Positions 10,213 through 45,432 of a stretch of 52,537 nt of DNA are shown piece after piece. The translations under genes were made by a program, and so were the position numbers. Origin of the DNA: an uncultured Enterobacteriaceae bacterium (lineage in GTDB: Bacteria > Pseudomonadota > Gammaproteobacteria > Burkholderiales > SG8-39); assembly GCA_964582155.1 (NCBI GenBank), contig CAZOSA010000002.1:1432-53968 (forward strand), given 5' to 3'. How positions within the stretch are numbered: the first letter of the stretch is position 1; every line of letters begins with the position of its first letter. Under the pieces are notes generated by a model. It worked only from the letters and a program-made list of their open reading frames with translations. It searched no databases and was not told the DNA's origin.

Positions 10213-10469
10213 GGTGCTCCTTGTCGATGTTGTGAGGCTAACGACGCCGCATAAGAGCGGTTGGGGAGACGGCCCTCCCGCCGCTAGTCCATTCGGCCTA
10301 CGTTTCCGGCACGCGCTGCCCGGGCAAGCTTTCGGTGCTGCATTTGTAGAATGACTCAACGTTGAAGGATCCTCTTGGGGACGGCTTGAACATCTTGCGA
10401 CTCACCGATGCAGCAGGCTCGCTCGCATGCGGGTTCGATCTCGTTTTGCGGCACAAGGCGTAGCTCGAG

Positions 10470-12479
10470 ATGTGCGGCCTTTCGGGTTTTGTCGGCGACA
10501 ACGCTGCCCATGCTTTCGACCGGGCATCGCTATTGCGGCGCATGGGAGATTCCATCGCTCATCGCGGGCCGGACGATTCCGGCGTCTGGATGGATGCCGA
10601 TCTGGGAATCGGTCTTGTGCACCGGCGCTTGTCGATCGTGGATTTGTCGCCGGCGGGACATCAGCCAATGGTGTCGGCCAGCGGGCGGTTTGTGCTGGTG
10701 TTCAATGGAGAAATCTATAACCATCTGGAGTTGAGAAAAGCGCTGGCAGACGCAATTGCCTCGCCCCAACACTTCTCTGCGCAACCGGCAGGCGGCAAGT
10801 CGTGGCGCGGGCATTCGGATACTGAAACCCTGCTGGCCGGTTTCGAAGCCTGGGGTGTCGAAGCGACGCTGAAGCAAGCCGTGGGCATGTTTGCCATCGC
10901 GCTGTGGGATCGAGGCGGGCGCGCGCTCTACCTCGCGCGCGACAGGGTGGGCGAGAAACCGCTGTATTACGGCTGGCAGAACGGTGTTTTCCTGTTCGGT
11001 TCCGAATTGAAAGCGCTGAAAAGACATCCGTCATTTCAGGGCGAAATCGACCGGGACGCGCTCACGCTGCTGTTGCGGCATAGCTACATCCCGGCGCCTT
11101 ATTCGATTTATAAATCCATTCGCAAGCTGCCTCCCGGTACATTCCTCAAACTCGCCGTGGATAGCGGGCAGTTCGCAGCCGGTGGGCTGCCGAAGCCTAC
11201 GCCCTACTGGTCGCTGGCTGGCGCGGCGAGGACCGGGCGTGCAGAACCGTTTCGCGGCAGCGATGCCGAGGCGGTCAGCGCTCTGGAGGCGAGGCTCAAG
11301 GAATCCATCGGCCTGCAGATGATGGCCGATGTGCCGTTGGGAGCGTTTCTTTCCGGCGGCGTGGATTCGTCCACCGTCGTGGCACTGATGCAGGCGCAAT
11401 CCAGCCGCCCGGTGAAGACTTTCACCATCGGTTTTGAGGAAGAGGGATATAACGAAGCGGAGCACGCCAGCGCCGTTGCCCGGCATCTGGGGACCGACCA
11501 TACGGAGCTGTACGTCACCGCAGACGAAGCCCGCAACGTAATCCCGCGCTTGCCGACGCTCTACGACGAGCCGTTTTCGGATTCCTCGCAGATACCCACT
11601 TTTCTGGTTTCCCACATGGCGCGGCAGCATGTGACGGTTGCGCTTTCCGGAGATGGAGGGGACGAGTTGTTTGGTGGCTACGAGCGCTATTTTCAGACCA
11701 GCAGGATATGGCGTTACGTTCGCAAACTTCCACCGGGCATTCGCAATGCCGCCGCGCTGGCCATCCAGGCGCTGCCGCGCGATACCTGGACTCGCCTTTA
11801 TGGCCCCGTTGCCAAAGTGCTTCCGCGGCGCCTGCGCTCGGTTCAGTTGGGCTGCAAGGCGTACAGGCTTGCGGAAATCCTCGAGTGCAAGGATCCGGAA
11901 GAAATTTATTACGGCCTGCTTTCTCAGTGGAAGGATCCTGCGCAAGTGGTCATAGGCGCCAGCGAGCCCGATACCGTGCTGACCGATCGCCGCGATTGCA
12001 GCGGCATTCCCGGCATCGAGCAGTACATGATGTACGTGGATGCGGTCAGCTACTTGCCCGACGATATTCTCGTGAAGGTGGATCGCGCCGCTATGGGGGT
12101 CAGCCTGGAGACGCGCGTACCGTTTCTGGACCATCGCGTCATCGAGCTTGCCTGGCGCTTGCCGCTATCCATGAGGATGCGCAACGGGCAGGGCAAATGG
12201 ATTTTGCGGCAGGTACTCGACAAGCATGTGCCGAAAGCGTTGATCGACCGACCCAAGATGGGATTTGGCGTGCCGATCGATTCGTGGTTGCGCGGGCCCC
12301 TGCGCGACTGGGCGGAAGCGTTATTGGACGAAGGGCGGCTGCGGCGGGAGGGTTTCTTCAATCCCGAGCCGATTCGCCAGAAGTGGTCGCAGCACCTGGG
12401 CGGACAAAGGAACTGGCAACACCATTTGTGGAATGTGTTGATGTTTCAGGCGTGGCTGGAGAACGAGCGGGTACAGTAA
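10470..12479 (+). CDS. Asparagine synthase (glutamine-hydrolysing) family amidotransferase, EPS-locus type
   Basis: 669 aa. N-terminal nucleophile MCGLSGF, RGPDDSG, and the synthetase PP-loop motif AFLSGGVDSS. Same family as the exosortase-associated amidotransferases and WbpS-type uronamide-forming enzymes. Confidence 0.85.
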   Translation: MCGLSGFVGDNAAHAFDRASLLRRMGDSIAHRGPDDSGVWMDADLGIGLVHRRLSIVDLSPAGHQPMVSASGRFVLVFNGEIYNHLELRKALADAIASPQHFSAQPAGGKSWRGHSDTETLLAGFEAWGVEATLKQAVGMFAIALWDRGGRALYLARDRVGEKPLYYGWQNGVFLFGSELKALKRHPSFQGEIDRDALTLLLRHSYIPAPYSIYKSIRKLPPGTFLKLAVDSGQFAAGGLPKPTPYWSLAGAARTGRAEPFRGSDAEAVSALEARLKESIGLQMMADVPLGAFLSGGVDSSTVVALMQAQSSRPVKTFTIGFEEEGYNEAEHASAVARHLGTDHTELYVTADEARNVIPRLPTLYDEPFSDSSQIPTFLVSHMARQHVTVALSGDGGDELFGGYERYFQTSRIWRYVRKLPPGIRNAAALAIQALPRDTWTRLYGPVAKVLPRRLRSVQLGCKAYRLAEILECKDPEEIYYGLLSQWKDPAQVVIGASEPDTVLTDRRDCSGIPGIEQYMMYVDAVSYLPDDILVKVDRAAMGVSLETRVPFLDHRVIELAWRLPLSMRMRNGQGKWILRQVLDKHVPKALIDRPKMGFGVPIDSWLRGPLRDWAEALLDEGRLRREGFFNPEPIRQKWSQHLGGQRNWQHHLWNVLMFQAWLENERVQ

Positions 12480-12579: not shown

Positions 12580-13605
12580 TTGGATATCAAGCCGACGGTT
12601 CTTGTTACCGGCGCAGCCGGTTTTATCGGTTCGAATGTTTGCAGCCGGCTGCTGGCGCGCGAACAGGAAGTAATCGGGCTGGACAACCTCAACGCCTACT
12701 ACGATGTGCGCCTGAAGGAAGCCCGGCTCGCGCGGCTCAGGCAGTCGAAGAAGTTTTCTTTTGTGGTCGCAGGCGTCGAAGATTCCGCGGCGCTGCAACG
12801 GGTTTTTGCTGAAGCCAGGCCGGTGCAGGTGGTGCATCTTGCCGCCCAGGCCGGCGTGCGCTATTCGATCGATCATCCGGAAGCGTACGTGTCCAGCAAT
12901 CTGGTGGGGTTCGCGAATATGCTGGAGGTCTGCCGGCACAACGGTGTCGAGCACCTTGTCTTCGCCTCGACCAGCTCTGTCTACGGCGCGAGCCGGATGA
13001 TTCCGTTTTCCGAACATGGAGTGACGGATCACCCGGTTTCGTTCTATGCGGCGACCAAGAAGGCCAACGAAGCTATGGCGCACAGCTACGCCTACCTGTA
13101 TCGGCTGCCATGCACGGGTTTGCGGTTCTTCACGGTGTACGGGCCGTGGGGCCGGCCGGACATGGCGCTGTTCAAGTTCACCGAAGCCATTCTTGCGGGA
13201 AGGCCGATCCAGGTCTTCAACGGCGGCAACATGGTGCGCGACTTCACCTATGTGGACGACGTCGTCGAAGGCATCCTGAAAGTGCTCGATCAGCCTGCCG
13301 CGCCGAATCCGGACTGGGACGGCAAGGCGCCCGATCCTGCCACCAGCAGCGCTCCCTACCGGATTTACAACATCGGCAACAACAGGCCGGAGAATCTTAT
13401 GCGCTACATCGAAGTGCTGGAACACAGTCTCGGCAGGAAAGCGGTCATGGACTTCCAGCCCATGCAGCCGGGCGACGTGCCCGAAACCTACGCCGACACG
13501 ACCGAACTGGAAAGGGCGGTCGGCTACAAGCCGGACACGCCGATCGAAGTCGGGGTGAAACGGTTCGTCGATTGGTATCTGGAATACAGCGGGAAGAAAA
13601 CATGA
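12580..13605 (+). CDS. NAD-dependent UDP-glucuronate / UDP-hexosaminuronate 4-epimerase (CapI/LpsL-like SDR)
   Basis: TTG start; [14 protein letters not shown] Rossmann motif; catalytic YAATKKANE. Full-length resemblance to the CapI/GlaKP-type epimerases. The stop overlaps the next start (ATGA at 13602-13605). Confidence 0.8.
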
Positions 13606-14894
13606 AGACAGCGACAGACAAGGTGGCCGTGGTGGGGTTGGGGTACGTGGGGTTGCCGCTCGCGGTCGCGTTCGGCGGAAAAATCGACACCATCGGCTTT
13701 GACATCAACGAGAAAAGGGTGGCGAGCATTCAGCGCTGCGTGGATCCGACGCGGGAGATGAGCAACGCCGAACTCAAGGCCGCCTCCGGACTTACCTGCA
13801 CCACGAACCCGGAAAAGCTGGGTGAAGCGCAAGTCATCATCATCGCCGTTCCCACGCCCATCGATACCGCGCATCAGCCCGATTTCGGACCCCTGGCCTC
13901 GGCCAGCAGGGTGGTCGGCAGGAACATGAAAAAGGGCGTCACGGTCGTGTACGAATCCACCGTCTACCCCGGCGCGACGGAAGAAGTGTGCGTGCCGATT
14001 CTGGAGCGGGAATCGGGGATGAAGTGGCGCACCGATTTTCATGTCGGCTACTCACCGGAGCGCATCAACCCCGGCGACAAGAGCCATCGGCTGGAGACCA
14101 TCGTCAAGATCGTGGCGGGAGACGATGCCGACACCACGGAACAGGTGGCGCGGCTCTACGAACTGGTGGTGCGGGCCGGCGTGCACGCGGCCTCGTCCAT
14201 CAGGGTCGCCGAAGCGGCCAAGGTGATCGAGAACACGCAGCGCGATTTGAATATTGCACTGATGAACGAACTGGCGATCATTTTCAACCGGCTCGGGCTC
14301 GATACGATCGAGGTGCTGGAGGCGGCGGGAACCAAGTGGAACTTCCTGCCCTTCCGTCCGGGGCTGGTGGGCGGACACTGCATCGGCGTGGATCCCTACT
14401 ACCTTACGCACAAGGCGGAAAAGATAGGCTACCACTCGCAGGTGATCCTGGCGGGGCGGCGTATCAACGACGGCATGGGAATCTATGTGGCCCAGCAGAC
14501 CGTGAAGCACATGATCGCGCAGGGCCGGCAGATCTCGGGGGCGAAAGTAAACCTGCTGGGTCTCACTTTCAAGGAAGACTGTCCGGACATTCGCAATACC
14601 CGAGTGGTGGATCTGATCCAGGAGTTGCAGAGCTACGGCATCGAGGTCGTGGTGCACGATCCGGTTGCGGACGCACCGGAGGCCCTGCGCGAGTACGGGA
14701 TCAAGTTAGTGTCGTGGCAGGATCTGCAGCCTGCGGATGCCCTGATTCTCGCCGTTGCCCATAAGGAATTTCTTGCCCTGCCGGGCGACGAGTTGTACGC
14801 GAAAATGACCAAACCGGCCTGCCTGGTCGACGTGAAATCGAAGCTGAACGTGAATGCGCTGAAGAAGGCGGGTGTGGCGGTGTGGAGGCTCTAG
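13602..14894 (+). CDS. Nucleotide-sugar 6-dehydrogenase, TviB/WbpO/CapL-like (UDP-N-acetylhexosamine dehydrogenase family)
   Basis: The true start is the ATG at 13602 ([24 protein letters not shown]). Catalytic region [15 protein letters not shown]. The 13110 ORF start is an out-of-context extension across the epimerase gene. Confidence 0.82.
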
Positions 14895-14943
14895 AGCCGA
14901 TCCACGCCGCAATGGAAGTTCGCGCCTACGCCGTGCCGGTTTC

Positions 14944-15072
14944 GCAGGCTGCGACCGTTGCCTGCAGGCGGCGTGGTCCGAACGGACCAGGAGCGGCGGG
15001 CCTGCGCCGCGCGGGCCCCAGGTAATCCGATTGGACCATGCGGCGGCAAGCCGCCGCAGGCAGGACTTGCCT
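14944..15072 (+). promoter_or_regulatory. Four consecutive GC-rich hairpins in the 200-bp spacer before the PPTase gene
   Basis: GCAGGC-N10-GCCTGC at 14944-14965. TGGTCCG-AA-CGGACCA at 14974-14989. GCGGCGGC-AA-GCCGCCGC at 15040-15057. AGGCA-N5-TGCCT at 15058-15072. Confidence 0.4.
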
Positions 15073-15096
15073 ACTGCGGCGCGTAAGTTCGTAGGC

Positions 15097-15765
15097 GTGG
15101 ATTCGCGAAACCCGCTCAAGCCTTCTCTGTCCGTCGAAGTCGTGGCATCCCGCCTGGACCTGGAACCGGGCGCGGTCGATGCGCTGGCCGGCTGGCTCCG
15201 GGACGATGAGCGCCGGCGTGCAGGCCGCTTTCGTCTCGCACGCGATCGCCGGCGCTACGTCGTAGCGCGCGGCCGCCTGCGCCAGCTGCTCGCGGCGCGC
15301 CTGGGTACGCACCCTCGATCGGTCGAACTGTCCTGCGGGGCGCACGGCAAGCCCTGCCTCGCGCCGGGATCCGCCGCCGTGGACTTGCGCTTCAACGTTT
15401 CACATTCCGGGGACTTCGCGCTGTTCGCATTCTGCCGCGGCCGCGAGGTCGGCGTCGATGTCGAGGCGGTCCAGCCGATGCAAGGCGCCGACGCCGTCGC
15501 GCGACATTTCTTCACGCGCGGCGAACTCCAGGCGTACCGGGCGCTCGCGCCGCGCGACCGGGAACTGGGATTCTTCACTTGCTGGACGCGCAAGGAGGCC
15601 TACCTCAAGGCGCTCGGCGGCGGCCTGCAATCTCCGTTGAGCGAATTCGACGTCCCGCCCGACCGCGAGGGCAACGGCACCGGGTGGAGCGTGCGAAGCT
15701 TCTCACCGGCGCCGGGTCATGCTGCCGCGCTTGCCGTCGAGCTCGGCGGCAATGCGCACCCATAG
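15097..15765 (+). CDS. Sfp-type 4'-phosphopantetheinyl transferase
   Basis: Motifs FNVSHSGDFALFAF, VGVDVE and FFTCWTRKEAYLKALG. A GTG at 15097 gives a typical length of about 222 aa. The start is uncertain (the ORF is open from 14872). Confidence 0.75.
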   Translation: MDSRNPLKPSLSVEVVASRLDLEPGAVDALAGWLRDDERRRAGRFRLARDRRRYVVARGRLRQLLAARLGTHPRSVELSCGAHGKPCLAPGSAAVDLRFNVSHSGDFALFAFCRGREVGVDVEAVQPMQGADAVARHFFTRGELQAYRALAPRDRELGFFTCWTRKEAYLKALGGGLQSPLSEFDVPPDREGNGTGWSVRSFSPAPGHAAALAVELGGNAHP

Positions 15766-15771
15766 ACAGCC

Positions 15772-16923
15772 ATGTCGTCCGCCACCTATCAATCTGCGTG
15801 GATCAACGCTGAAGCGCGCATGTTCCGCAACACGGCCCGCCTGTTCGTGCAGAAGGAGTTCGTGCCGCATCATGCCCGTTGGTGCGCGCAGCATTTCCCC
15901 GATGCCGAGGCATGGACGAAGGCGGGCGCAGTAGGCCTGCTCCTGCCTGACGTTCCGGAAGAGTACGGCGGCGGCGGTGGGACATTCGCCCATGAAGCCG
16001 TGGTCCTGGAGGAACTCGCCCAGGCAGGGGTCCACTTCGGCGCCGGCATTCAGAGCATCGTTGCGCACTACATCCTCGCTTACGGCAGCGAGGGGCACAA
16101 ACGCAATTGGCTCCCCCGCATGGCGCGCGGCGAACTGGTGGGCGCAATCGCCATGAGCGAGCCCGCCGCGGGCTCCGACCTGCAAGGCATCAAGACCAGC
16201 GCCCGCCGCGACGGCGAGCAATATGTCATCAATGGCTCGAAGACATTCGTCACCAACGGCTGGCACGCCGGACTTGTCTGCCTCGCCGTGAAAACCGACC
16301 CCCGGGCCACCGGCTGGAAGGGAATTTCCCTGGTCGTGGTCGAAGCGAAGGATCTTCCCGGCTACCGGGCCGGCCGCCCGCTCGAAAAAGTCGGCATGCA
16401 CGCTCAGGACACCTGCGAACTGTTCTTCGATGACCTGCGCGTCCCGGTCTCGAACCTTCTGGGCACCGCCGAAGGCAAGGGCTTCTCCCAGATGATGGAG
16501 CAACTGCCCTATGAGCGCCTGACGGTCGGCGTGAGCGCCGTGGCGACCACGGAGCGCGCAGTCGCCATCACCACCCGGTACGTGAAAGACAGGACTGCCT
16601 TCGGCAAGCCGCTCATCGATTTTCAGAATACGCGCTTCCAGCTGGCTCAATGCATGACCGAGGCGCAGGTCGGTCGCGTCTTCCTGGACCACTGCATCGA
16701 GCGCTTCATTGACGGCCAGCTCGACGACGCGACCGCCGCCATGGCGAAATACTGGCTCACCGACAGCGAATGCCGCGTCGTCGACGAGTGCGTCCAGTTG
16801 CACGGCGGCTACGGCTACATGATGGAGTACCCGATTGCCCGCATGTGGGCCGACAGCCGCGCGCAACGGATCTACGCCGGCACCAATGAAATCATGAAGG
16901 AGCTGATCGCTTGGTCAACATGA
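15772..16923 (+). CDS. Acyl-CoA dehydrogenase family flavoprotein (LCAD/IVD-like active-site layout)
   Basis: 383 aa. AMSEPAAGSDL, FVTNG, LHGGYGYMMEYP, YAGTNEIMKELI. Ala sits at the MCAD catalytic-Glu position, with a Glu in PYERLTV as in LCAD/IVD. The stop overlaps the next start (ATGA at 16920-16923). Confidence 0.85.
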   Translation: MSSATYQSAWINAEARMFRNTARLFVQKEFVPHHARWCAQHFPDAEAWTKAGAVGLLLPDVPEEYGGGGGTFAHEAVVLEELAQAGVHFGAGIQSIVAHYILAYGSEGHKRNWLPRMARGELVGAIAMSEPAAGSDLQGIKTSARRDGEQYVINGSKTFVTNGWHAGLVCLAVKTDPRATGWKGISLVVVEAKDLPGYRAGRPLEKVGMHAQDTCELFFDDLRVPVSNLLGTAEGKGFSQMMEQLPYERLTVGVSAVATTERAVAITTRYVKDRTAFGKPLIDFQNTRFQLAQCMTEAQVGRVFLDHCIERFIDGQLDDATAAMAKYWLTDSECRVVDECVQLHGGYGYMMEYPIARMWADSRAQRIYAGTNEIMKELIAWST

Positions 16924-19679
16924 GCGTTTCTCCAGCGCAGGCACGGCAGGACGCGGCGCTGACGTATCCCGGCGGGAATCTGCGTCTGCACGACCTGTTC
17001 GACCAACAGGCGGCGCGAACGCCCGATGACGTGGCCCTGGCATGCGAGCAGCAAAGCCTGACCTACCGCGAGCTGGCCCGGCGCGCCGACCGGCTCGCCC
17101 GGCACCTGAGGACCATGGGCGCCGGCCCGGACGTGCTCGTCGCACTGCTGGTCGAGCGCTCGCTGGACATGGTGGTGGGCATCCTGGGCATCCTGAAAGC
17201 AGGTGCGGCCTACCTGCCCATCGATCCGGCCTTCCCTCACGAGCGGATCGCGTTCATGCTCGCCGACGCCGGCACAGGGGTGCTCGTCACGCAAACCGGA
17301 TTCCTGCCGGGCCTGCCAACCGGCACCGTGCAGGCGGTATGCCTGGATGCGTTCGACTGGACCGGGCCGGAAGGCCCGGCGCAGGCCGGGGCTCACGTCC
17401 ATCCGGGCAACCTCGCGTACGTCATCTATACGAGCGGTTCGACGGGCCGCCCCAAGGGCGTGTGCATCGAACACCGCAATATCGTCAGCTACGTGCTGGG
17501 GGTGGCGCAACGGCTGCGCCTGGAGCCCGGCATGCATCACGCGACGGTGTCGACCATCGCCGCCGATCTGGGCAACACGGTGATTTTCCCGGCGCTGGCC
17601 ACCGGGGGCTGCCTGCATGTCATTTCGCAGGAGCGGATCGAGGACCAGGCCCTGCTGGCCGATTACTTCAGCCGCGAGAAAATCGACGTCCTGAAAATCG
17701 TTCCGTCGCACCTGGCCGCATTGCAGGCCGGCGGCAATCCCGAGCGCGTCATGCCCAGGCGGCGCCTGGTGCTCGGCGGCGAGGCCTCGCGGCTCGACTG
17801 GGTCGAGCGCCTGCGCGCGTTGGCACCGGATTGCGAGATCTACAACCACTACGGCCCCACGGAAGCCACCGTAGGGGTATTGACCTACCAGGTCGGCCCG
17901 CAGCTGCCCGGTACGCAGTCCGGCACGCTTCCCCTGGGCAAGCCCCTGCCGAATAGCCGCGTCTACCTGCTCGATGCGAACGGCAAGCCCGTGCCTGCCG
18001 GCGACCGGGGCGAACTGTGCATCGGCGGCAGCGGGGTGGCGCGGGGCTACCTGAATCGCCCCGACCTTGGTGTCGGGAAGTTCGTGCCGGATCCATTCAG
18101 CGCCGACCCCGGCGCACGGATGTACCACACCGGCGACCTGGCGCGGTGCCTCGCGGACGGGAACATCGAGTTCTGCGGGCGAATCGACGATCAGGTCAAG
18201 CTGAACGGCTACCGGGTCGAACCCGGTGAAATCGAAGCCGCGCTGCGCGAACAGGGCGGCATCCAGGATGCCGTGGTGCTGGCCCGTGAAGACGGTTCCG
18301 GCGCGAGACAGCTGGCGGCCTATGTGGTGCCCAGGCGCACCCATCAGGCGCTCTGGGTCTGCAATCAGGTCCATCTCCTGCCGGACGGCTCGCCGGTTGC
18401 GCACCTGAACAGGAACGAGACCGACTACATCTACAACGAAATCTTCGTCCTGCAGGCGTATCTGCGGCACGGCATCTCGATACGCGACGGCGACTGCATC
18501 ATCGATGCGGGCGCCAATATCGGGTTGTTCACCGTGTTCGCCAACAGGCTGGCGCGCGACCTCAGGATGGTTTGCTTCGAGCCGAACCCCGCCGCCTATG
18601 CGTGCCTGTCGGTCAATGCCGAAGCCTGGGGCGCGCAGGTGAAATGCCTGCCGATCGGATTGTCCCGGGAGGACCGATCGGCGGAACTGACATTTTTCCA
18701 GGGATTGTCGCTGCTCTCCGGGTTCTACGCCGACCCGGCGACCGAACGCGAGACGGTCAGAAACTATGTGCTGAACCAGCAACCGGGGCCGGCGCAAAAC
18801 GAGCTCCTGGACGGGGAAATCGGCGCGCTGCTCGATGAGCGGCTCCAGTCCAGGACCGTCACCGCCCGTCTGCGTCCCCTGTCCAGCGTCCTGGCGGAGG
18901 AAGGCATCGAGCGCATCGACCTGCTCAAGATCAATGTCGAAAAGAGCGAGCTGGACGTGTTGATGGGAATCGCCCCCGGGGACTGGCCCAGGATTCGCCA
19001 GCTGGTCATCGAGGTGGACCAACGGGGAAACCTCGCGCCCATCACTTCCCTGCTGGAACGGCACGGCTTCGATTACTGCGTCGAGCAGGATCCGCTGCTG
19101 AGAAATACCGAACTGTGTTACGTGTACGCGATCCGGCCTTCCGAGCGTGGTTGCCTCATACGGCAACAGTCCGCCGATGCCCACAGGCTGTCGCTGCCGG
19201 CCGCAGACGGCGCGCTGCTGACGCCCGCGCTCCTGCGCAAGCACCTGCAGGAGCGGCTGCCCCGGTACATGATTCCGTCGGCTTTCGTGCTGATGGAGAA
19301 ATTTCCGTTGAATTCGAACGGCAAGATCGATCGCCAGGCGTTTCCGGATTTCTCCCGGGAGAAGCTGTCTCCCGTGCGCATGCCGGTCAAGCCGCAAACC
19401 GATACCGAGAGGGAACTCGCGGCGATCTGGGCCGAGCTGCTGAATCTGGAAAGCGTCGGGGTCGACGAGGATTTCTTCGATCTCGGGGGGCATTCACTGC
19501 TCGCGATCCGGGCCGTGTCGCGCGTACGGGACAGGTTCGAAGTGAACGTGTCGCTGCGCAATCTGCTCGAGTCTCCCACGGTGGCGGGGCTGGCCCGGGT
19601 GATCGACGGCCTGTCGTGGCTGACGAAGTCGAAAGCGCCGGCGCAGGAAGCGGGCGATCGAGAGGAGATCGAATTGTGA
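16920..19679 (+). CDS. NRPS-like A-MT-PCP protein: adenylation domain interrupted by an FkbM-family methyltransferase, plus a C-terminal thiolation domain
   Basis: A-core motifs LAYVIYTSGSTGRPKGV, YNHYGPTEAT, YHTGDLAR, GRIDDQVKLNGYRVEPGEIE. An insert of about 290 aa carries IIDAGANIGLFT ... IDLLKINVEKSELDVL (FkbM-type). Then LPRYMIPS and NGKIDR. PCP motif FFDLGGHSLLA with the Ser codon at 19494-19496. No condensation domain. Confidence 0.85.
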   Translation: MSVSPAQARQDAALTYPGGNLRLHDLFDQQAARTPDDVALACEQQSLTYRELARRADRLARHLRTMGAGPDVLVALLVERSLDMVVGILGILKAGAAYLPIDPAFPHERIAFMLADAGTGVLVTQTGFLPGLPTGTVQAVCLDAFDWTGPEGPAQAGAHVHPGNLAYVIYTSGSTGRPKGVCIEHRNIVSYVLGVAQRLRLEPGMHHATVSTIAADLGNTVIFPALATGGCLHVISQERIEDQALLADYFSREKIDVLKIVPSHLAALQAGGNPERVMPRRRLVLGGEASRLDWVERLRALAPDCEIYNHYGPTEATVGVLTYQVGPQLPGTQSGTLPLGKPLPNSRVYLLDANGKPVPAGDRGELCIGGSGVARGYLNRPDLGVGKFVPDPFSADPGARMYHTGDLARCLADGNIEFCGRIDDQVKLNGYRVEPGEIEAALREQGGIQDAVVLAREDGSGARQLAAYVVPRRTHQALWVCNQVHLLPDGSPVAHLNRNETDYIYNEIFVLQAYLRHGISIRDGDCIIDAGANIGLFTVFANRLARDLRMVCFEPNPAAYACLSVNAEAWGAQVKCLPIGLSREDRSAELTFFQGLSLLSGFYADPATERETVRNYVLNQQPGPAQNELLDGEIGALLDERLQSRTVTARLRPLSSVLAEEGIERIDLLKINVEKSELDVLMGIAPGDWPRIRQLVIEVDQRGNLAPITSLLERHGFDYCVEQDPLLRNTELCYVYAIRPSERGCLIRQQSADAHRLSLPAADGALLTPALLRKHLQERLPRYMIPSAFVLMEKFPLNSNGKIDRQAFPDFSREKLSPVRMPVKPQTDTERELAAIWAELLNLESVGVDEDFFDLGGHSLLAIRAVSRVRDRFEVNVSLRNLLESPTVAGLARVIDGLSWLTKSKAPAQEAGDREEIEL

Positions 19680-20725
19680 ACCTGCAGCCCTTCCTTGCCG
19701 ACCTGCACGAGCGCAAGATTCAGCTCTGGGCCGACGGCGATCGTCTTCGGTGCAAGGCTCCGGCCGGCGTGCTCACCGCCGGGCTGCGCGACCAGTTGAT
19801 GCAGCGCAAGAGCGAGATCCTGGCGCTGCTGCGCTCGGCCGAGGCCGTTGCCCGGCAGCCGCGGGCCGTCGTTCCACTGCAGCCGCGCGGCAAGCGCACG
19901 CCGGTCTTCGCGGTCCCCGGCCACTACGGCGATGTCTTCGGCTACCGCGCCCTCGCGCTGCGCCTGGGAGAGGATCAGCCGTTCTTCGGTCTCGAGCCGC
20001 CGGGCCTGGACGGCGCCAGCGAGCCGCTGGCAAGGGTTGAGGATCTCGCGGCCTATTTTGCGGCGCAGATCCAGGCCATGCAGCCAGAAGGCCCGTACAT
20101 CATCGCCGGCCATTGCGCCGGCGGCGCCATCGCTTTCGAGCTGGCGCGGCAACTGCGGGAGCGTGGTGCGGACCTGCGCCTGCTTGCCCTGTTCGCCTGC
20201 CCCTATCCGACGTACTACCGCTTTGCGCCCCAACTGAATCAGGCTGTCGTGCAGCAAGTGCAACGCATCGGCAGGCATGTTCGCGCGCTGGCGACGCTCT
20301 CTTTTCCGCAGGCTCGCCAGTACATCGGCGGGCGGCTTCGCCGGCTCGAAGGACAGCGCGATGCCGGGCGCGCGGCGTCGGTGGATCCCGTTCTGGTGCG
20401 GCGCGCCGCGGTATCACGCGCCACGGTTGCGGCGATACGCCGCTACACGCCCGCCGGCTATGCCGGTCGTGTCAGCCTGATCCTGCCCAACAGGGCATGG
20501 TTGCACTCTGGGGCCGAACCTCTGCGGTGGCGATCGGTAGCGCCACAAGCCGAGCACTACTTCGGGCCGGATTGGTGTAACCCCGATCTCCTGCACATGG
20601 AGCCCGACGCATCTGCCATCGCGGATCTGTTCAGGCAGTGCCGGGATGCGAGCTCGAAGAAGGCCATCGCGACGATGGTTGAACCATCGGGTGCCGGCAT
20701 CCCACAGGGATTGATGACGCCATGA
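19676..20725 (+). CDS. Stand-alone thioesterase (alpha/beta hydrolase) with N-terminal TubC_N-type docking domain; Cys in the nucleophile position
   Basis: GTG start overlapping the upstream stop (GTGA at 19676-19679). The N-terminus LADLHERKIQLWADGDRLRCKAPAGVLTAGLRDQLMQRKSEILALL matches the TubC docking-domain pattern. The TE core PVFAVPGHYGDVFGY ... YIIAGHCAGGAIAFE has its Cys codon at 20114-20116, where GHSxG is expected. Confidence 0.75.
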   Translation: MNLQPFLADLHERKIQLWADGDRLRCKAPAGVLTAGLRDQLMQRKSEILALLRSAEAVARQPRAVVPLQPRGKRTPVFAVPGHYGDVFGYRALALRLGEDQPFFGLEPPGLDGASEPLARVEDLAAYFAAQIQAMQPEGPYIIAGHCAGGAIAFELARQLRERGADLRLLALFACPYPTYYRFAPQLNQAVVQQVQRIGRHVRALATLSFPQARQYIGGRLRRLEGQRDAGRAASVDPVLVRRAAVSRATVAAIRRYTPAGYAGRVSLILPNRAWLHSGAEPLRWRSVAPQAEHYFGPDWCNPDLLHMEPDASAIADLFRQCRDASSKKAIATMVEPSGAGIPQGLMTP

Positions 20726-20726
20726 A

Positions 20727-21530
20727 ATGGACGGTCCACCGATGATTCGCATCAAGGGCTCGGGCGCGATATACGGAGACGTGTGGTTCGACGAAGAACC
20801 TCCCCGGGATCCGGGAGTGGATATCGTGCGCTATCGCTGCAGGCATGCGCCGATCGCGGATACGCGCTGCGCCCCGTTTCTGTCAATGGTCACCGATCTT
20901 TGCGTTGCTGCGGACGCAATCGCCGGCCAGTTCGGCAAGGATTGCAGGTACAAAGTCAGGCGGGCCGATACCAAGGATGGATTGCTGACGGAATTCATCA
21001 TGCAGCCGCAGGACCGGCTGGACGAATTCGTCGCATTCTTCGACACATTTGCGCGGCAAAAGGCGTACGAGCGCTGTGACCAGCGATGGTTGCGTGCCGC
21101 CTGCGAGGCCGGTCAGCTTGTCCTCACGACGGCCTCCCGGCAAGGCGAGGCGCTGGTCTGGCATGCCTACGTCAACGCAGGGAACGCTGCGAGGCTGCAG
21201 TACACGTGCTCCTGTTTCCGAGAAAGGGAGAACGATTATCGCGCCCTCGTCGGCCGGGCCAATCGCTGGCTCCATTGGCAAGACATGCTGCAGTTCAAGC
21301 AACTGGGAATGGGACGCTACGATTGGGGAGGACTGTTCGAGGACGAATCCGCACCGGATCGCGCCGGAATCAACGAGTTCAAGAAAAGTTTCGGCGGACG
21401 GACCGAGCGTACGTACGATTGCACGGTCCCGGTGACCCTCAAAGGCCGGATTTATCTTCCCCTGCGAGACGCTTGGCGCAACCGAAGAACCGTTGTGCCC
21501 GCCGGCAAAGTAAGTTCCGCAAGTACCTGA
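20727..21530 (+). CDS. FemAB-like GNAT acyl/aminoacyl-transferase (Acetyltransf_6-type)
   Basis: 267 aa. CRYKVRRADTKDG ... ALVWHAYV ... GRYDWGGL ... GINEFKKSFGG fits the FemAB/BioF2-like GNAT pattern. The ATG is 1 nt after the TE stop. Confidence 0.6.
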   Translation: MDGPPMIRIKGSGAIYGDVWFDEEPPRDPGVDIVRYRCRHAPIADTRCAPFLSMVTDLCVAADAIAGQFGKDCRYKVRRADTKDGLLTEFIMQPQDRLDEFVAFFDTFARQKAYERCDQRWLRAACEAGQLVLTTASRQGEALVWHAYVNAGNAARLQYTCSCFRERENDYRALVGRANRWLHWQDMLQFKQLGMGRYDWGGLFEDESAPDRAGINEFKKSFGGRTERTYDCTVPVTLKGRIYLPLRDAWRNRRTVVPAGKVSSAST

Positions 21531-21531
21531 T

Positions 21532-22587
21532 TCAGGCGCGCGCCATGGCGTGGAATTCCCGCAGCGTCGCGCCGCGGCACCAGGCGGAAAGATCCTCAAA
21601 CAGAATCTCCAGGTACTCGTACAAGCGTTCAATATCCGACGCGTCGCGGAAAATCGGGCTGCCGCCCGGCATGAGCTCGGAGGAATGCAGCATGAACTCC
21701 ATGTAGCCCGCGCCTTCCGCCCGCGCATCGCGCGCCGTTGCCAACATTGCCTCGAGGTGACGACCCAATGGCGCGCGGATCGTAGGCTGCACCGGGCACA
21801 ACCACCCGAGACCGACGGACGCCCTGTTGGCGTACCGGCGCAGCAACGGGATGCGATACGCCCACGGCGCCCTCCGGTAGAGGCCGCTCGGGCGCACCGT
21901 CATCGGCACCTCGAGCAGCGTACCGGCGGTCGCCGGCCGCGAGATGTCGGACGGGTCGAGGAAGTAGGGCCGGTCGGGAAAGTCCGTATAGTCCGAGCCG
22001 CCGTTGCCGGCTGGATCGCCCGGAGATCCGCGCCAATCGGTGCCCGGAGTCACGGAACAGTCCACGCGATATCCTTCCTCGATCAGGAGGGCGGCATAGC
22101 GGCCATCGAAAGCCCAACGCCCTGCGCGATGGCTGATCATCTCCCGGTCGAACCGGTCTTCGAGGAGGCGGGTGAGGGTTCTGATCTTGTCCCTCATCAC
22201 CGACACGGGATATTCGATCAGGTAGGGATGAAAATGGAAATCGTCGCTGGTCAGCGGCTCGAGCGGCGGCGAGTTCCATGCGTGCAGGTGCATTCCAATC
22301 TCGCCGGCGCAGCGGGCAAGCACGTCGCGCGCGAATTCGACGAACACGCCGGACATCGCCATCTCGTAGTTCGTCAGGTAAACCGGCTTGAAGCGGAACC
22401 GCTCGCAGAGCGCCTGGAAACGAGGCAGGTACTCCGCGTTGCGGGTGGTGATCTCCCGCGGGTTGGCCCACAGATCGTCACCCTCGGTGTCGATCGTGAT
22501 GATGAAAGGTGTGTCAGGCACGGCGCGCCTTGCCCGACACGATCGTTCTGCGGCTGGACGTGCCCGTACCGTGCTGCGGTCCCGCAA
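21532..22587 (-). CDS. Polysaccharide-deacetylase-like protein (WalW-like, deacetylase/glycoside-hydrolase beta/alpha-barrel superfamily)
   Basis: 351 aa. N-terminal FIITIDTEGDDLWANP then HLHAWNSPP and EFMLHSSEL. Convergent with the GNAT gene (1-nt gap between stops). A GTG at 22521 is an alternative start. Confidence 0.5.
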   Translation of the reverse strand: MRDRSTVRARPAAERSCRARRAVPDTPFIITIDTEGDDLWANPREITTRNAEYLPRFQALCERFRFKPVYLTNYEMAMSGVFVEFARDVLARCAGEIGMHLHAWNSPPLEPLTSDDFHFHPYLIEYPVSVMRDKIRTLTRLLEDRFDREMISHRAGRWAFDGRYAALLIEEGYRVDCSVTPGTDWRGSPGDPAGNGGSDYTDFPDRPYFLDPSDISRPATAGTLLEVPMTVRPSGLYRRAPWAYRIPLLRRYANRASVGLGWLCPVQPTIRAPLGRHLEAMLATARDARAEGAGYMEFMLHSSELMPGGSPIFRDASDIERLYEYLEILFEDLSAWCRGATLREFHAMARA

Positions 22588-22887: not shown

Positions 22888-23553
22888 TCATGGTTCCGAC
22901 AATGTGTGCGTCCCCATTTGTCCGACAAGAAGCTGATGAGAGGTGCGCACGTAATAGCTGCACCAGCTTGCAATGCCCAACCACTTGGCCCCGTCTTCAA
23001 AAAAGTACTCCCAATGACCAAGTCGCCGCGACCATGGCTCAAGAATCGCGTCCATGGCAACAGAAGTCGCGAGGAATCCCAGCGCCAGCAACAAGACACC
23101 GAAATTCGTTCGCAATACAACCCGTCTGAACGCGATGAGATAAGCAGCTACGGCAATCCCCAAAGCCGCGTAGACGACTATCTGGTCCAGACCCAGATAC
23201 CGAAGAGCCAACTCGTCATGAAATAGAAAGAAATCATCAAACAGGAGATAAGCCGACAAGAGAGCGGAGCAAAGAAGAAACCAGAACGTATGTCCCGGCT
23301 TGACATTGCGAAGAGTCATCGCTGCGAAAGCACATATCGATGCAGCCGCACACCACAGGAGAATTCCGAGGCTTGAAAGAATGCCCGTAAGAGGGTGAAT
23401 ATTCGCAGTGGCTGTAACATCCCGGGTCATGACATCCATATTCACCTGAAAAAGTACGCCTGCCGCCGCCATTGCCACAAGAATGGATATGGATGGAATA
23501 AAGGTCATCAACAGCTGCCGTGCGGACACCGTCTTCATTGCAATACCTCGCAC
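22888..23553 (-). CDS. Hypothetical polytopic inner-membrane protein (about 6 TM helices)
   Basis: 221-aa ORF with repeated hydrophobic spans. I recognised no family signature. GC is markedly lower than the surroundings (23/60 and 34/60 in two hand-counted lines). The start is 1 nt after the ATP-grasp stop. Confidence 0.55.
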   Translation of the reverse strand: MRGIAMKTVSARQLLMTFIPSISILVAMAAAGVLFQVNMDVMTRDVTATANIHPLTGILSSLGILLWCAAASICAFAAMTLRNVKPGHTFWFLLCSALLSAYLLFDDFFLFHDELALRYLGLDQIVVYAALGIAVAAYLIAFRRVVLRTNFGVLLLALGFLATSVAMDAILEPWSRRLGHWEYFFEDGAKWLGIASWCSYYVRTSHQLLVGQMGTHTLSEP

Positions 23554-23554
23554 G

Positions 23555-24784
23555 TCAACGGGGGCGCGGCAACCGCGGCACGCGTCTCAGGGTCGGCGGC
23601 AGCCGCTTCAGGACGGCTTCAAGAAGTTTTCTCCAGTAGAGGTGCAGCGTCGGGATCGGGTCGCGCGCATCCCAGGTGAGATGGTGGTGGCTGGTGAGCG
23701 TGCTCCAGAGTATCTTGAGTGCCCAGTCAAGGAGCTCGGCGCCGCTTTGCCGTCCTTGCTTGCGGCAAGCGAGCCAGCCCAGCGCGTCGCCGTACAGCCA
23801 GTGGTAATGCTTGCCGGTGCGGTAAGCCGTGGTCAGCGGAGCCGGCGCATGGCGCGCGGCAATCTCCACCGCGATGCGCGGATAGTCGTACCCCAGGCGA
23901 TAAGGCAGCGCCGCGGTGCTGTCCATTCTCGGGTTGACTTCGAGGAAGGCGACGGTTCCGCTGTTCTCGTCGACCATGAACTGGATGCAGCCGATGCCGT
24001 GGTAGCCGAGGGCCTCGACCAGGCGCTCGCAGTAGGTGCGCAGTTCGGGCGAAATCGGCACCGAGACGCCTTCGACGCCGATGCCGGTACCGTCGAACTC
24101 ATCGGTGCGCAGCACCTTCTGCTGGAAGAACGCCACGATGCGGCCGCGATCGGCGGCGATGTGGCAGTTCTGGCGCTCGCCGGAGGCGAATTTCTGCAGC
24201 ACCAGCGACTCCGGATCGGGCTCGCTTTGCAGCTCGGCGAGAAAACTGTCGAACGCCGCGGGCGTGCGCAGAATGATGGCTTTCTTCTGCTTGATGGGCG
24301 CCGAGGAATCCTTGCGCTTGACCACCACCGGGAAGCCCATTTCGCGCGCGGCGCGCGACCAGTCTTCGCAATCGGTGTATTCGCGCCAGGGTGCGGTCGG
24401 GATGCCGAGCGTCGGGGTCAACGCGTAGAGCGCGCGCTTGTCGAAGCAGCGCAGCACCGTGGCCGGGTCGGGCATCACCCAGGTGGCGAGCGGCATGAAG
24501 CGTTCGGCGGCCCAGACTATGCGGCGCGCCTGGGTCTCGCCGACCGGGAATACGTAGTCGGGCTTCGCGTGCCTCAGGTAGGATTCGAGCTGGTCGAGGA
24601 AGCGGTCGCGGTTGGACTCCTCGAACACGCGCACGTCCGAGACGTAGCGCGAAAGCGCGGTCGAGCTGCGCCTTTCATCGGTGCCCAGGGCGATCCGGAA
24701 GCCGCCGCGCGCCAGGGACCGGACGATCGTCACCGTCTGCCGATAGTCCCCGAGGACGAGGACGCGTCCGCCTTTGCCTGACAT
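23555..24784 (-). CDS. ATP-grasp family carboxylate-amine ligase
   Basis: 409 aa. RVLVLGDYRQTVTIVRSLARGG, GFPVVVKRKDS, FLEVNPRMDST. A C-terminal extension of about 90 aa has unknown function. Confidence 0.7.
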   Translation of the reverse strand: MSGKGGRVLVLGDYRQTVTIVRSLARGGFRIALGTDERRSSTALSRYVSDVRVFEESNRDRFLDQLESYLRHAKPDYVFPVGETQARRIVWAAERFMPLATWVMPDPATVLRCFDKRALYALTPTLGIPTAPWREYTDCEDWSRAAREMGFPVVVKRKDSSAPIKQKKAIILRTPAAFDSFLAELQSEPDPESLVLQKFASGERQNCHIAADRGRIVAFFQQKVLRTDEFDGTGIGVEGVSVPISPELRTYCERLVEALGYHGIGCIQFMVDENSGTVAFLEVNPRMDSTAALPYRLGYDYPRIAVEIAARHAPAPLTTAYRTGKHYHWLYGDALGWLACRKQGRQSGAELLDWALKILWSTLTSHHHLTWDARDPIPTLHLYWRKLLEAVLKRLPPTLRRVPRLPRPR

Positions 24785-24984: not shown

Positions 24985-25803
24985 TCACGGCAGGGCCCCT
25001 TGCAACGGTCCCGCGCTAACAGCGCGCGGCGTCACGCCGCGGATCACGCGGGCGTGAATGACCGATGAGGGTTTGCCAAACGCCGTGTGGTAGTTGGCGA
25101 GCTTGAAGTAGCAACCCTGGCCCGGATACAGCGTAGGCCCACGGTAAGCCATCTTCTGCACGCCATTGACCCATGCATCGAAGAAACCATCGGCTCCCGA
25201 AGACCACTGGACGTGGTAGACGAAGTTGTACCACTGGTTCCTCACGACCGGGCCTATGGGCGCGTTGTAAGTGGTCGGGCTGGTCTGGTTGCCATAGGCG
25301 ACCTGGAAACTGAGCCCGGTGGGGCGGTCGGGCGAAATCGCGGTGACGGGCATTGCGTTCACCTGGAAATTGGCCTGCCCGGCACCGGGCGCGGAGTTGT
25401 GGAAATCGGCGACCACGCCCCAGTTCCACGTCGTTGCCGTGCTTTCGGGCGGGGCAACATAGTCGTCGGGAAACAGGATCGAATGCGCCCACCAGTGTTC
25501 CCGGCCATCATGACAATCGCTCGCCCGACGCGACAATGCCAGATCGCTGCGCTCGGCCGTGCGGCTACCGTGAACGTGGCTGTCTCCGGGCCTGGTATGC
25601 AGGCGCACGCCGTTCAGGCCGGCGACATGCACGATGGAAGCGCGGCCCGCCCCTTTCGACTGCTCGGCGAATCCGCAATCCTGCGGCACGCCGGTAAACA
25701 AGCAGGAATACTCAACCCCGCGATCGAGCCGAACATCGGCGCGCGCTTTCGAAACGGCGGGCACGAGACACAGGCACAAGACTGCAGGGATCAACCTGTG
25801 CAT
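24985..25803 (-). CDS. Secreted polysaccharide-lyase-like jelly-roll protein (paralogue of 6830-7771)
   Basis: 272 aa. Sec-type signal MHRLIPAVLCLCLVPAVSKARA. Same HWWAHS..WNWG..DFH..WYNFVYHVQWSSGADGFFDAWVNG..YFKLANYH pattern. Only 30 nt downstream of the lipoprotein gene. Confidence 0.6.
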   Translation of the reverse strand: MHRLIPAVLCLCLVPAVSKARADVRLDRGVEYSCLFTGVPQDCGFAEQSKGAGRASIVHVAGLNGVRLHTRPGDSHVHGSRTAERSDLALSRRASDCHDGREHWWAHSILFPDDYVAPPESTATTWNWGVVADFHNSAPGAGQANFQVNAMPVTAISPDRPTGLSFQVAYGNQTSPTTYNAPIGPVVRNQWYNFVYHVQWSSGADGFFDAWVNGVQKMAYRGPTLYPGQGCYFKLANYHTAFGKPSSVIHARVIRGVTPRAVSAGPLQGALP

Positions 25804-30125: not shown

Positions 30126-30199
30126 GAATCTCCTTGGTTCCGGCACCAGCGTGACGGAGGCGTTTGACGCCCTTGCCGGGCGCGACTAGTCCGGACGGA

Positions 30200-39896: not shown

Positions 39897-39915
39897 TCTG
39901 CTCAGCCCGGTTAAT

Positions 39916-40812: not shown

Positions 40813-40815
40813 TCC

Positions 40816-42246: not shown

Positions 42247-42293
42247 GCTGGTTGCCGGTTGGAAGGGTTGCTCATACAGTCTGGCATCGCCCG

Positions 42294-43160: not shown

Positions 43161-43292
43161 CTCTGGATGCGCGACAGGTTAGCCCCGGAACATTGAACTG
43201 GAAGTTGCAGGCTTGATCCGGACGGACTATCCGGCAGTACAGATTGTCCCGCCGCGACCGGATTGCCCCGGCGCGACAAGACATTGCGCCTC

Positions 43293-45396: not shown

Positions 45397-45432
45397 GGCT
45401 CAACGCCTTTCAATTCAGTCACTTATCCCGCA

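Follow-up and report, generated by a model that had tools for sequence, protein, structure and literature searches.

The 52,537-nucleotide stretch of contig CAZOSA010000002.1 analysed here (the window, in what follows) carries, inside a locus for exopolysaccharide (EPS) synthesis, a cassette of five co-directional genes that resembles a small non-ribosomal peptide synthetase (NRPS) system. We provide evidence that the cassette is part of a conserved genetic unit shared by many uncultured bacteria, a conclusion that is well supported; the chemistry that we propose for it, the tailoring of a glycan, is hypothetical. The five genes, and a sixth that neighbours them on the opposite strand and that we call X, are as follows.

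15097-15765, + strand: Sfp/HetI-type 4'-phosphopantetheinyl transferase (PPTase), 222 aa; PF01648 and PF22624
15772-16923, + strand: flavoenzyme of the acyl-CoA dehydrogenase (ACAD) family, LCAD/IVD type, 383 aa; three ACAD Pfam domains
16920-19679, + strand: AMTP, an adenylation (A) domain, FkbM methyltransferase (MT) and peptidyl carrier protein (PCP) with a C-terminal docking tail, 919 aa; Pfam and NCBIfam
19676-20725, + strand: TubC_N docking domain and thioesterase (TE)-like alpha/beta-hydrolase, 349 aa; PF18563 and PF00975
20727-21530, + strand: predicted Fem-like GNAT aminoacyl transferase (Fem), 267 aa; fold, family profile and orthologs
21532-22521, - strand (open reading frame opens at 22587): X, predicted CE4-fold protein (polysaccharide deacetylase/ArnD-like), 329 aa; AlphaFold2 (AF2) model and Foldseek

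All five cassette genes are real open reading frames on the + strand, with third-position GC of 0.71-0.83 in a window of 60-67% GC, and they stand in the order given by an earlier reading made from the sequence alone (the sequence-only reading). The junctions that it described as translationally coupled can be read directly from the DNA (ATGA at 16920-16923, GTGA at 19676-19679 and TGA-A-ATG at 20723-20729). Ortholog alignment backs GTG 15097 as the PPTase start, and AMTP may have an alternative start at TTG 16911. The true start of Fem is probably ATG 20742, giving 262 aa, because orthologs open with MIRxKG and the gene call in one relative (L080; loci and contigs of relatives are given as L numbers) agrees. 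Signal peptides are absent from all cassette and partner proteins. A promoter and terminator scan of 12.3-23.7 kb gave counts equal to the shuffle expectation, and no Rfam family or tRNA was found across the whole window.

Profile searches bear out the domain calls of the sequence-only reading for the PPTase, ACAD, A-MT-PCP and TE proteins, all of which match Pfam or NCBIfam models above cutoff. The PPTase has the two domains of an Sfp-type enzyme, PF01648 (63 bits) and PF22624 (AASDHPPT_N; 47 bits), each over cutoff, and its closest NCBIfam model is HetI (133 bits, under the HetI cutoff). No NCBIfam model specifically names any cassette protein, the cassette has no curated family, and we found no paper describing it in the literature, in keeping with the earlier impression that this combination had not been characterised.

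A scan of species-representative genomes for AMTP recovered 28 orthologous loci, in Betaproteobacteria, Gemmatimonadota, Acidobacteriota, Nitrospirota, Armatimonadota, Eisenbacteria and others. All come from uncultured organisms (27 metagenome-assembled genomes (MAGs) and one uncultured-bacterium assembly); Georgfuchsia toluolica is a named carrier, through a protein (P0088) that could not be placed on any contig. When the window proteins were searched against these loci with tblastn, ACAD lay next to AMTP in 22 of 28, the TE-like gene in 23 and the PPTase in 20. On this co-occurrence we take PPTase-ACAD-AMTP-TE to be the core unit.

Precomputed annotations of 11 metagenome contigs revealed a fuller arrangement, in which a polysaccharide lyase-like gene on the + strand is followed by PPTase-ACAD-AMTP-TE-GT4-X-Fem, with a glycosyltransferase of family GT4 in the middle, and then by a second lyase-like gene on the - strand and mostly a lipoprotein, a further GT4 and a UDP-glucose 6-dehydrogenase (UGDH). 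Junctions between TE, GT4, X and Fem overlap or are spaced by 4 nt in L081, L086, L087 and L088; in L086 the TE gene ends at 13692, GT4 occupies 13697-14851, X occupies 14844-15860 and Fem starts at 15857. Matches by tblastn to the seven-gene unit stand in the same order in L001-L004, L018 and L021, and the block is syntenic across dozens of contigs. Gene order across these relatives points to a seven-gene operon, PPTase-ACAD-AMTP-TE-GT4-X-Fem, as the ancestral unit. Compared with L001, the window has lost the operonic GT4, inverted X, and gained an ATP-grasp gene and a 7.3-kb insert. The idea of a cassette of five genes by design therefore falls, since relatives carry seven and X is inverted in the window. 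The operonic GT4 gives weak, sub-threshold matches only (GPMC GT4, BshA and SenB), with no clue to the sugar.

Parts of the unit recur in other architectures. In L083 an A-MT-PCP-TE fusion lies 3' of a TIGR03019-like FemAB protein, an exosortase, a UGDH and an ACAD, and in L084 a C-A-MT-PCP-TE protein (C, condensation domain) with a PPTase and an ACAD lies between a Bac_transf priming enzyme and a NusG-deacetylase-GT2-AsnB-GT2 run. The X-Fem pair adjoins a different NRPS and PPTase in a glycosyltransferase- and flippase-rich locus (L089), and in L090 it adjoins a DltA-like adenylating enzyme, a free DltC-like carrier, AsnB, a GT4 and Wzx.

The AMTP A domain scores 429.4 bits against TIGR01733 (cutoff 317.4) and 285.6 bits against PF00501 (AMP-binding), and it has the core motifs YTSGSTGRPKG, NHYGPTE and NGKIDR of an NRPS adenylation domain. 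The sequence-only reading had proposed extracting the specificity code, which is DLTKVGHVGK as read by aligning the domain to a GrsA fragment, with the A4 motif placed by hand. Among 149 AMTP homologs, 109 have DLTKIGHVGK and 37 have DLTKVGHVGK (together 146 of 149). The latter is a predicted Asp code that corresponds to L-erythro-hydroxyaspartate in tistrellabactin (PMC10391617), and a signature survey finds it mainly in Asp domains, and in some Asn domains too (PMC12283262). The code thus narrows the predicted substrate of AMTP to Asp.

An FkbM-type domain (Methyltransf_21) at AMTP residues 529-719 splits the C-terminal subdomain of the A domain between motifs a8 and a9; the AMP-binding_C match is confined to residues 437-474, and the a10 Lys is residue 802. 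The S-adenosylmethionine (SAM) motif of this MT, DAGANIG at residue 529, conforms to the type II O-MT motif DxGx(N/H)xG (PMC8341866), and the MT is 38% identical to one from a Kutzneria locus. As an Asp code means that no Ser/Thr hydroxyl can be the methyl acceptor, and as the beta-carboxylate is the oxygen nucleophile that Asp offers, the acceptor is most plausibly the Asp side-chain carboxylate, which would give a beta-methyl ester. The PCP lies at residues 832-895 (PP-binding), with its GGHSL motif at residue 856. The best 120 AMTP matches are 67-100% identical over the full length, and the C-terminal docking tail is retained even in multi-module relatives.

ACAD matches PF02771, PF02770 and PF00441 (N-terminal, middle and C-terminal domains), all over cutoff, and its orthologs across phyla are 66-92% identical. 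Its top matches in the Protein Data Bank (PDB) are a Geobacillus ACAD (2pg0; E 1.8e-110) and human LCAD, with bit scores of 373 and 333 (LCAD and 2pg0) against 158 for AnaB and 116 for a prolyl-PCP dehydrogenase. The Glu in its QLPYERL motif is aligned with the Glu in ELPQERL of LCAD, which we take to be the LCAD-type catalytic base; the position that presumably holds the MCAD-type base Glu is Ala (IYAGTNE). By these features ACAD looks capable of alpha,beta-dehydrogenation and seems to have been recruited out of fatty-acid metabolism. On chemical reasoning, methyl-esterification of Asp would drop a charge and leave the residue more acyl-like, and an aminofumarate ester product would be a conjugation-stabilised enamine.

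Two other assignments of this chemistry were considered and rejected. The prolyl-PCP-dehydrogenase type does not fit ACAD, which scores 198 bits against NF045652 (RedW; cutoff 650) and 174 bits against NF053553 (cutoff 500) and lies nearer to LCAD types. A bolagladin-type dehydro-beta-alanine route (PMC7756342) does not fit either, as there is no VinN-type ligase, free acyl carrier protein (ACP) or pyridoxal phosphate (PLP)-dependent decarboxylase here.

The TE-like protein matches TubC_N (PF18563) at 70 bits and the thioesterase profile PF00975 at 88.5 bits (cutoff 26.4), the latter over profile positions 2-131 of 226 only. Its nucleophile elbow, GHCAGG, carries Cys, and GxCAGG is invariant in 13 orthologs. 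LFACP stands where the triad Asp would be, and the His region is GPDWCNPDLL; the earlier label of thioesterase therefore holds for the PF00975 fold and the Cys elbow, and does not extend to the Asp and His of the triad. Orthologs have GPDxCxxDxxLxEP at the canonical PGxH site, with C301 and D304 invariant, and in a low-confidence alignment of the family profile with the TE of 7crn, D304 faces a His in the C-terminal HPHMM stretch of that TE, and we take this His to be the catalytic one.

This pattern is a property of the whole close clade. An exhaustive search gave 302 clusters at E <= 1e-30, and in an alignment of 150 representatives all close relatives, stand-alone and fused, have the Cys without the Asp and without the His, whereas distant NRPS thioesterases in the same alignment combine Ser or Cys with LxDT and PGxH. 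The best single-sequence PDB match of the TE-like protein is AB3403 of Acinetobacter baumannii (4zxh). As the triad Asp and His are missing, the TE-like protein is unlikely to be an efficient hydrolase, and it is better seen as a putative Cys acyl shuttle or transacylase. As a separate observation, one group of NRPS-fused TE domains (P0478, P0480, P0487, P0488, P0500, P0508 and P0510) has Cys, an acidic residue at the Asp position and 'DSG' in place of the catalytic His motif; judging from these alignments, TE domains without the His may extend beyond the one clade described here.

X had no Pfam or NCBIfam match at E <= 0.01, PF01522 included. Its family is large (6,100 matches at E <= 1e-5, the best 120 of them all at least 73% identical); none of the 120 homologs listed has a Pfam domain, and the named members are all called 'hypothetical protein'. 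An AF2 model (pTM 0.74, pLDDT 69) found 3rxz, 8t0j (ArnD) and 3qbu in Foldseek, with E values of 2e-6 to 2e-5 and TM scores of 0.45-0.6, and among the proteins matched by fold are a mycobacterial polysaccharide deacetylase, ArnD and HP0310. D33, E35, D37, H100 and H102 are among the invariant residues, and the motifs that hold them (TxDTEGD and HxH) are candidate catalytic and metal-binding motifs.

The call of a FemAB-like GNAT in the sequence-only reading was not reached by the FemAB profile itself (22 bits, under the cutoff of 24) and is upheld by other lines. Many orthologs, 65-85% identical, carry PF13480 or PF02388 in a precomputed table, and a profile of the Fem family finds Sba18 (9wqy) and FemX by sequence. 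An AF2 model (pLDDT 71) gave Sba18/Sbb17 as the best Foldseek matches (E ~9e-13; 9wqy 8.8e-13), followed by FemX (1e-10) and then MprF. In the profile alignment the Fem-family segment aGinkFKkdFgG faces AGINRFKLGFGG of Sba18 and YVFKHVF of FemX; GINxFKxxFGG is common to Fem and Sba18, and the Lys of this motif aligns with the Lys of FKHVF in FemX. K219 is invariant among orthologs and may be equivalent to Lys305 of FemX. The Sba18/Sbb17 structures were crystallised with the amino sugar streptothrisamine, and in BD-12 biosynthesis Orf11, of the FemABX family, uses Gly-tRNA to glycylate this compound (PMC12945691, a review). Both sequence and model thus suggest that Fem resembles aminoacyl-tRNA-dependent aminoacyl transferases of amino sugars.

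The wider window holds the features listed below.

6830-7771, + strand: polysaccharide lyase-like lipoprotein, left paralog (of 24985-25803); relatives' homolog has PF14099
7780-14894: strain-specific insert of 7.3 kb between lyase and PPTase, absent from the 88%-identical L001
7935-8930, - strand: methyltransferase (insert)
8959-10359, - strand: GT4 (insert)
10470-12479, + strand: AsnB-like amidotransferase (insert)
12580-13605, + strand: TviC-like epimerase (insert)
13602-14894, + strand: TviB-like UDP-GlcNAc 6-dehydrogenase (insert)
22888-23553, - strand: small multi-transmembrane membrane protein, convergent
23555-24784, - strand: ATP-grasp ligase, convergent
24985-25803, - strand: right lyase paralog (of 6830-7771)
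~25834-27420, - strand: lipoprotein (signal ...VLAGCG) with three internal ~150-aa repeats; only family match a spurious ZU5 fragment
27543-28805, - strand: GT4
28812-30146, - strand: UGDH
36826-38427, - strand: 533-aa multi-transmembrane protein between AsnB-like and Wzy_C genes; no Pfam/NCBIfam match
38373-47911: EPS assembly/export core by Pfam/NCBIfam (Wzy_C, EpsG, EpsF, EpsE, EpsL, PEP-CTERM-like protein, WcaJ)
44755-45396, - strand: PEP-CTERM-like protein, 213 aa, adjoining EpsL; C-terminal tail ...IAEPGIWVVLIAGFLGMCAVARRRFLIS
46514-47911: WcaJ-type priming transferase

Four equivalogs at 39.9-44.6 kb score over cutoff (EpsE, 321.2 versus 262.65; EpsF, 425 versus 422.75; EpsG, 338.5 versus 313.8; EpsL, 278.2 versus 275) and support a Methylobacillus-type (XrtB/PEP-CTERM-associated) Eps locus. 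The window also holds three GT4s, two AsnB-like amidotransferases, a UDP-glucose dehydrogenase, a heparinase-like protein and two-component regulators. A Wzx/Wzy, PEP-CTERM-type EPS island, as the sequence-only reading had it, is thus supported by EpsE/F/G/L, Wzy_C and WcaJ, and the Wzx part is not, with no Wzx HMM match in the window; the protein at 36826-38427 is a candidate Wzx-type flippase. No exosortase model matched among the window proteins scanned, which were a subset of the open reading frames of a locus that may run past the window. The tail of the PEP-CTERM-like protein resembles a PEP-CTERM sorting signal in which AEP replaces PEP.

Residence of the cassette in an EPS locus is conserved, and adjacency to UDP-uronic-acid genes is not. 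The cassette does lie directly downstream of such genes in the window, as had been noted, but they belong to the strain-specific insert; in L001, L086 and L087, which lack it, the lyase gene lies directly 5' of the PPTase. The left part of the insert (7935-8930 and 8959-10359) has a GC content of 0.58-0.59 against 0.65-0.67 for the cassette, which suggests recent acquisition. The lyase paralogs form inverted repeats (7093-7766 and 25008-25684; ~700 bp, 75-84% identity) that bracket 17 kb with the cassette, and these could promote the rearrangements seen here, the inversion of X and the loss of GT4. A like bracket of lyase genes, + and then -, is present in L001, L086 and L087. The ATP-grasp gene and its small-protein partner also occur in L087. 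Downstream, the order lipoprotein-GT4-UGDH is kept in L001-L004, L018, L021, L081, L086 and L088, and the repeat lipoprotein at 25834-27420 is conserved 3' of the cassette in betaproteobacterial relatives. Upstream by 6-8 kb, a T2SS/MSHA-like set (T2SSE ATPase, TPR-secretin lipoprotein and two or three prepilin-type pseudopilins) precedes the cassette in many betaproteobacterial contigs (L004, L018, L021, L023, L085 and L088); two-component regulators occupy this position in the window.

Taken with this context, we propose that the cassette serves glycan tailoring, in which a glycan precursor would receive a modified aspartyl unit on an amino sugar that has been deacetylated, a proposal to which we give about an even chance. 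The PPTase would prime the PCP, and the A domain would adenylate L-Asp and load it onto its own PCP. The embedded KtzH/FkbM-type MT would methylate the tethered residue to a beta-methyl ester, and the LCAD-type ACAD would take the alpha and beta hydrogens off the thioester to leave a dehydro-aspartyl (aminofumaryl) methyl ester. The TE-like protein would dock through TubC_N on the C-terminal tail of the PCP protein, accept the acyl group on its invariant Cys and hand it to an amine, not to water, because it is without the triad Asp and His.

The acceptor would be made by GT4, which would add an N-acetyl-hexosamine, and by CE4-fold X, which would strip the acetyl group. Fem would add an amino acid from an aminoacyl-tRNA, or would itself handle the carrier-bound acyl group; thus it might take a carrier-protein donor in place of tRNA. 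The reactions would take place in the cytoplasm, because signal peptides are absent, on a nucleotide- or undecaprenyl-linked EPS precursor of the EpsE/F/G/L, Wzy and WcaJ locus. The sequences and models themselves show the domain identities, the Asp code, the missing triad, the folds and the synteny; where the methyl group goes, what ACAD acts on, how the steps follow one another, and which acceptor and polymer take part belong to the inferred side of the scheme. The scheme in its full form, from Asp starter module through dehydro-aspartyl methyl ester and Cys-only TE shuttle to a deacetylated EPS amino sugar, with X and Fem as obligate partners, is tentative and somewhat doubtful as a whole.

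Gene context supports the feeding of a glycan rather than the release of a peptide, and we consider decoration of a sugar the most likely role because many uncultured soil bacteria carry the cassette together with sugar-modifying enzymes. To this extent the view of the sequence-only reading, that an acyl group goes to a glycan and is not released as a peptide, is sustained; it is qualified by the use of the same module as an NRPS starter elsewhere. Several observations weigh against the glycan-tailoring proposal. In L082 AMTP is the first module of a three-protein NRPS, with no sugar genes nearby, and the AMTP proteins of Gemmatimonadota and Eisenbacteria loci carry one or two additional modules in the same chain. 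The window itself lacks the operonic GT4 and has X on the opposite strand. The nearest relatives of ACAD are fatty-acyl-CoA dehydrogenases, and its substrate might be an unrelated acyl chain; the C-terminal half of the TE-like protein aligns to solved thioesterases with low confidence, and the quality of the AF2 models is moderate for both X and Fem (pLDDT 69 and 71). Finally, flanks of the non-betaproteobacterial loci are annotated in part only, and both the product and the sugar acceptor are proposed from gene content.

Lines with fused modules (L005, L014, L022, L027 and L008) come from Gemmatimonadota, Armatimonadota, Eisenbacteria and Terriglobia MAGs. The second and third A codes in L005, L014, L022 and L027 are DILQLGMIW and DFWNIGMVH, which we take to be Gly-type and Thr-type, respectively. 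The same C-terminal docking tail ends four of the five fused lines (L005, L008, L014 and L022), and a TubC_N-TE gene follows 3' in all four. In the single-module version, Fem might, more speculatively, supply from tRNA a residue equivalent to this NRPS-added Gly or Thr. A C-PCP pair with no A domain ends L008 and L089. Additionally, a protein of ~240 aa that by eye resembles class IV aminotransferases (PabC) lies just 5' of the PPTase in two Gemmatimonadota loci and one Armatimonadota locus (L005, 955-1725 region; L014, 7247-7963; and L022; cluster C15), and it could re-aminate the oxidised Asp unit.

Other products can be considered for the same genes. One is a soluble low-molecular-weight glycoconjugate built by the logic of mycothiol and bacillithiol, where GT4 would join an N-acetyl-hexosamine to an aglycone, the deacetylase would free the amine, Asp would be ligated from the PCP and the GNAT would finish the molecule. 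The occurrence of GT4, deacetylase-fold and GNAT-fold proteins beside an amino-acid-activating enzyme recalls the MshA/B/C/D order of the mycothiol pathway, all of the enzymes are cytoplasmic, the unit is compact and repeat-bracketed like a self-contained module, and weak matches link the operonic GT4 of L089 to BshA (E 2e-10) and that of L088 to SenB. However, the BshA and MshA scores are far under cutoff, and X has a predicted CE4 fold, whereas MshB and BshB are LmbE-type deacetylases. The unit also lies inside EPS loci, between lyase paralogs and near UGDH, GT4, Wzy and Eps export genes, and the window has lost the dedicated GT4 and kept the rest, which is easier to explain if other glycosyltransferases of the locus supply the acceptor. 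We thus regard a soluble glycoconjugate as unlikely, though a serious contender. The cassette may also be a minimal NRPS cluster that frees a modified amino or keto acid (for example dehydro-Asp methyl ester, the tautomer of oxaloacetate 4-methyl ester) to diffuse as a metabolite or signal, with the sugar genes merely co-located or co-regulated. In favour of this, other phyla use the module as a true NRPS starter, with Gly/Thr-type modules downstream and the same TE, and the locus has two-component regulators on its flanks. The closest solved relative of the TE-like protein is AB3403, which we take to come from a small NRPS operon that also encodes an ACAD and a PPTase and that has been connected with biofilm and motility. 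Yet a TE-like protein without the Asp and His for efficient hydrolysis is poorly suited to release, many contigs show translational coupling of the TE-GT4-X-Fem genes, the cassette has no exporter of its own, and the module recurs beside exosortase, priming transferases and glycosyltransferases in unrelated architectures; release of a free metabolite is therefore improbable.

Modification of a lipid or protein in connection with PEP-CTERM/exosortase sorting, yielding an aminoacylated lipid or an anchor moiety for PEP-CTERM proteins, seems to us very improbable. It would accord with the match of the Fem model to MprF aminoacyl-phosphatidylglycerol synthase domains, with the PEP-CTERM-like protein encoded in the window and with L083, where an exosortase and a TIGR03019-like FemAB protein directly adjoin the cassette; XrtA loci also carry a ligase, ACP and hydrolase set of their own, according to NCBIfam family names. 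Against this, no exosortase was found among the window proteins scanned, the TIGR03098 score is 224.5 bits against a cutoff of 592.35, the window Fem has no TIGR03019 match, and the acceptor that the GT4 and CE4 partners suggest is a sugar.

The cassette parallels several known systems and is a member of none of them, whether Dlt, AlmEFG, streptothricin-type, XrtA-set or prolyl-PCP dehydrogenase. Dlt places D-Ala on teichoic acids and AlmEFG places Gly on Vibrio lipid A; as proposed here, an A-domain enzyme and a phosphopantetheinyl carrier put an amino acid on a surface glycoconjugate and not into a peptide. However, the AMTP A domain scores 295 bits against the DltA model TIGR01734 (cutoff 560) and its carrier is fused, the predicted substrate here is Asp, and the tethered residue here is predicted to be methylated and dehydrogenated. 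DltB, DltD and AlmG are unrelated to the Cys-only TE-like protein, CE4-fold X and Fem; DltB and DltD were not searched for in the window.

In streptothricin and BD-12 biosynthesis a FemABX-fold enzyme links an amino acid to the amine of an amino sugar through an amide, and the window Fem resembles the enzymes Sba18 and Sbb17. Streptothricin itself is made with stand-alone NRPS A and PCP-C proteins, so that NRPS and Fem-type parts meet in this antibiotic family. Those products are small antibiotics of actinomycetes, whereas the present cassette lies in a Gram-negative EPS locus and has an MT-bearing module with an ACAD and a triad-less TE; identity is ~20%. The XrtA/PEP-CTERM set (ligase, ACP, decarboxylase, hydrolase and FemAB), which to our knowledge is itself uncharacterised, likewise brings an adenylating enzyme, a carrier, an alpha/beta-hydrolase and a FemAB-like protein into EPS loci. 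It differs in its decarboxylase, which is missing here; in the cassette a true NRPS A domain shares one protein with an MT and a PCP, and the cutoffs of TIGR03098 and TIGR03019 are not reached.

The individual enzymes also have partial counterparts. RedW, PigA and AnaB, which are prolyl-PCP dehydrogenases, and CaeB1 and ColB1, which act on Cys-PCP, likewise have an ACAD fold beside an A-PCP pair, with oxidation of the tethered residue expected; we found no precedent for an Asp methyl ester as the substrate of a carrier-acting ACAD. Cys-active-site thioesterases (ObiF, SulM and AB3403) share the GxCxG elbow, which is GWCFGG in AB3403. The TEs of ObiF and SulM form a lactone or lactam. AB3403 has the triad Asp (MIDT), and our alignment stops short of its C-terminal His region; the close TE clade has LFGxP in place of the triad Asp and GPDGCxxD in place of PGxH, in a free-standing protein with TubC_N. 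Interrupted A domains of family 2a (A8-M(O,Ser/Thr)-A9, exemplified by KtzH) have their MT between a8 and a9, as in AMTP, and the same type of SAM motif (PMC8341866). They methylate a Ser/Thr hydroxyl, whereas AMTP has an Asp code and so does not share their substrate, and AMTP stands alone as a starter module with an ACAD as its partner.

These findings bear on a poorly understood part of microbial surface chemistry. The physical and immunological behaviour of bacterial polysaccharides depends largely on their non-sugar substituents, yet few of the enzymes that attach amino-acid-derived groups have been identified. The cassette is abundant in soil metagenomes, with hundreds of homologs at 65-95% identity in several phyla, and Georgfuchsia toluolica, as a cultured carrier, makes the question of its role testable. 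Genome-mining tools will label such loci 'NRPS', although peptides may not be made. If EPS tailoring is the true role, it would give a function to the large family of CE4-fold 'hypothetical proteins' to which X belongs (>6,000 matches) and to a clade of TE-like proteins that are unlikely to act as ordinary hydrolases. It would also link assembly-line chemistry to Wzy-type polysaccharide synthesis, as the first such case of NRPS tailoring, and would represent a new chemical class of polysaccharide decoration.

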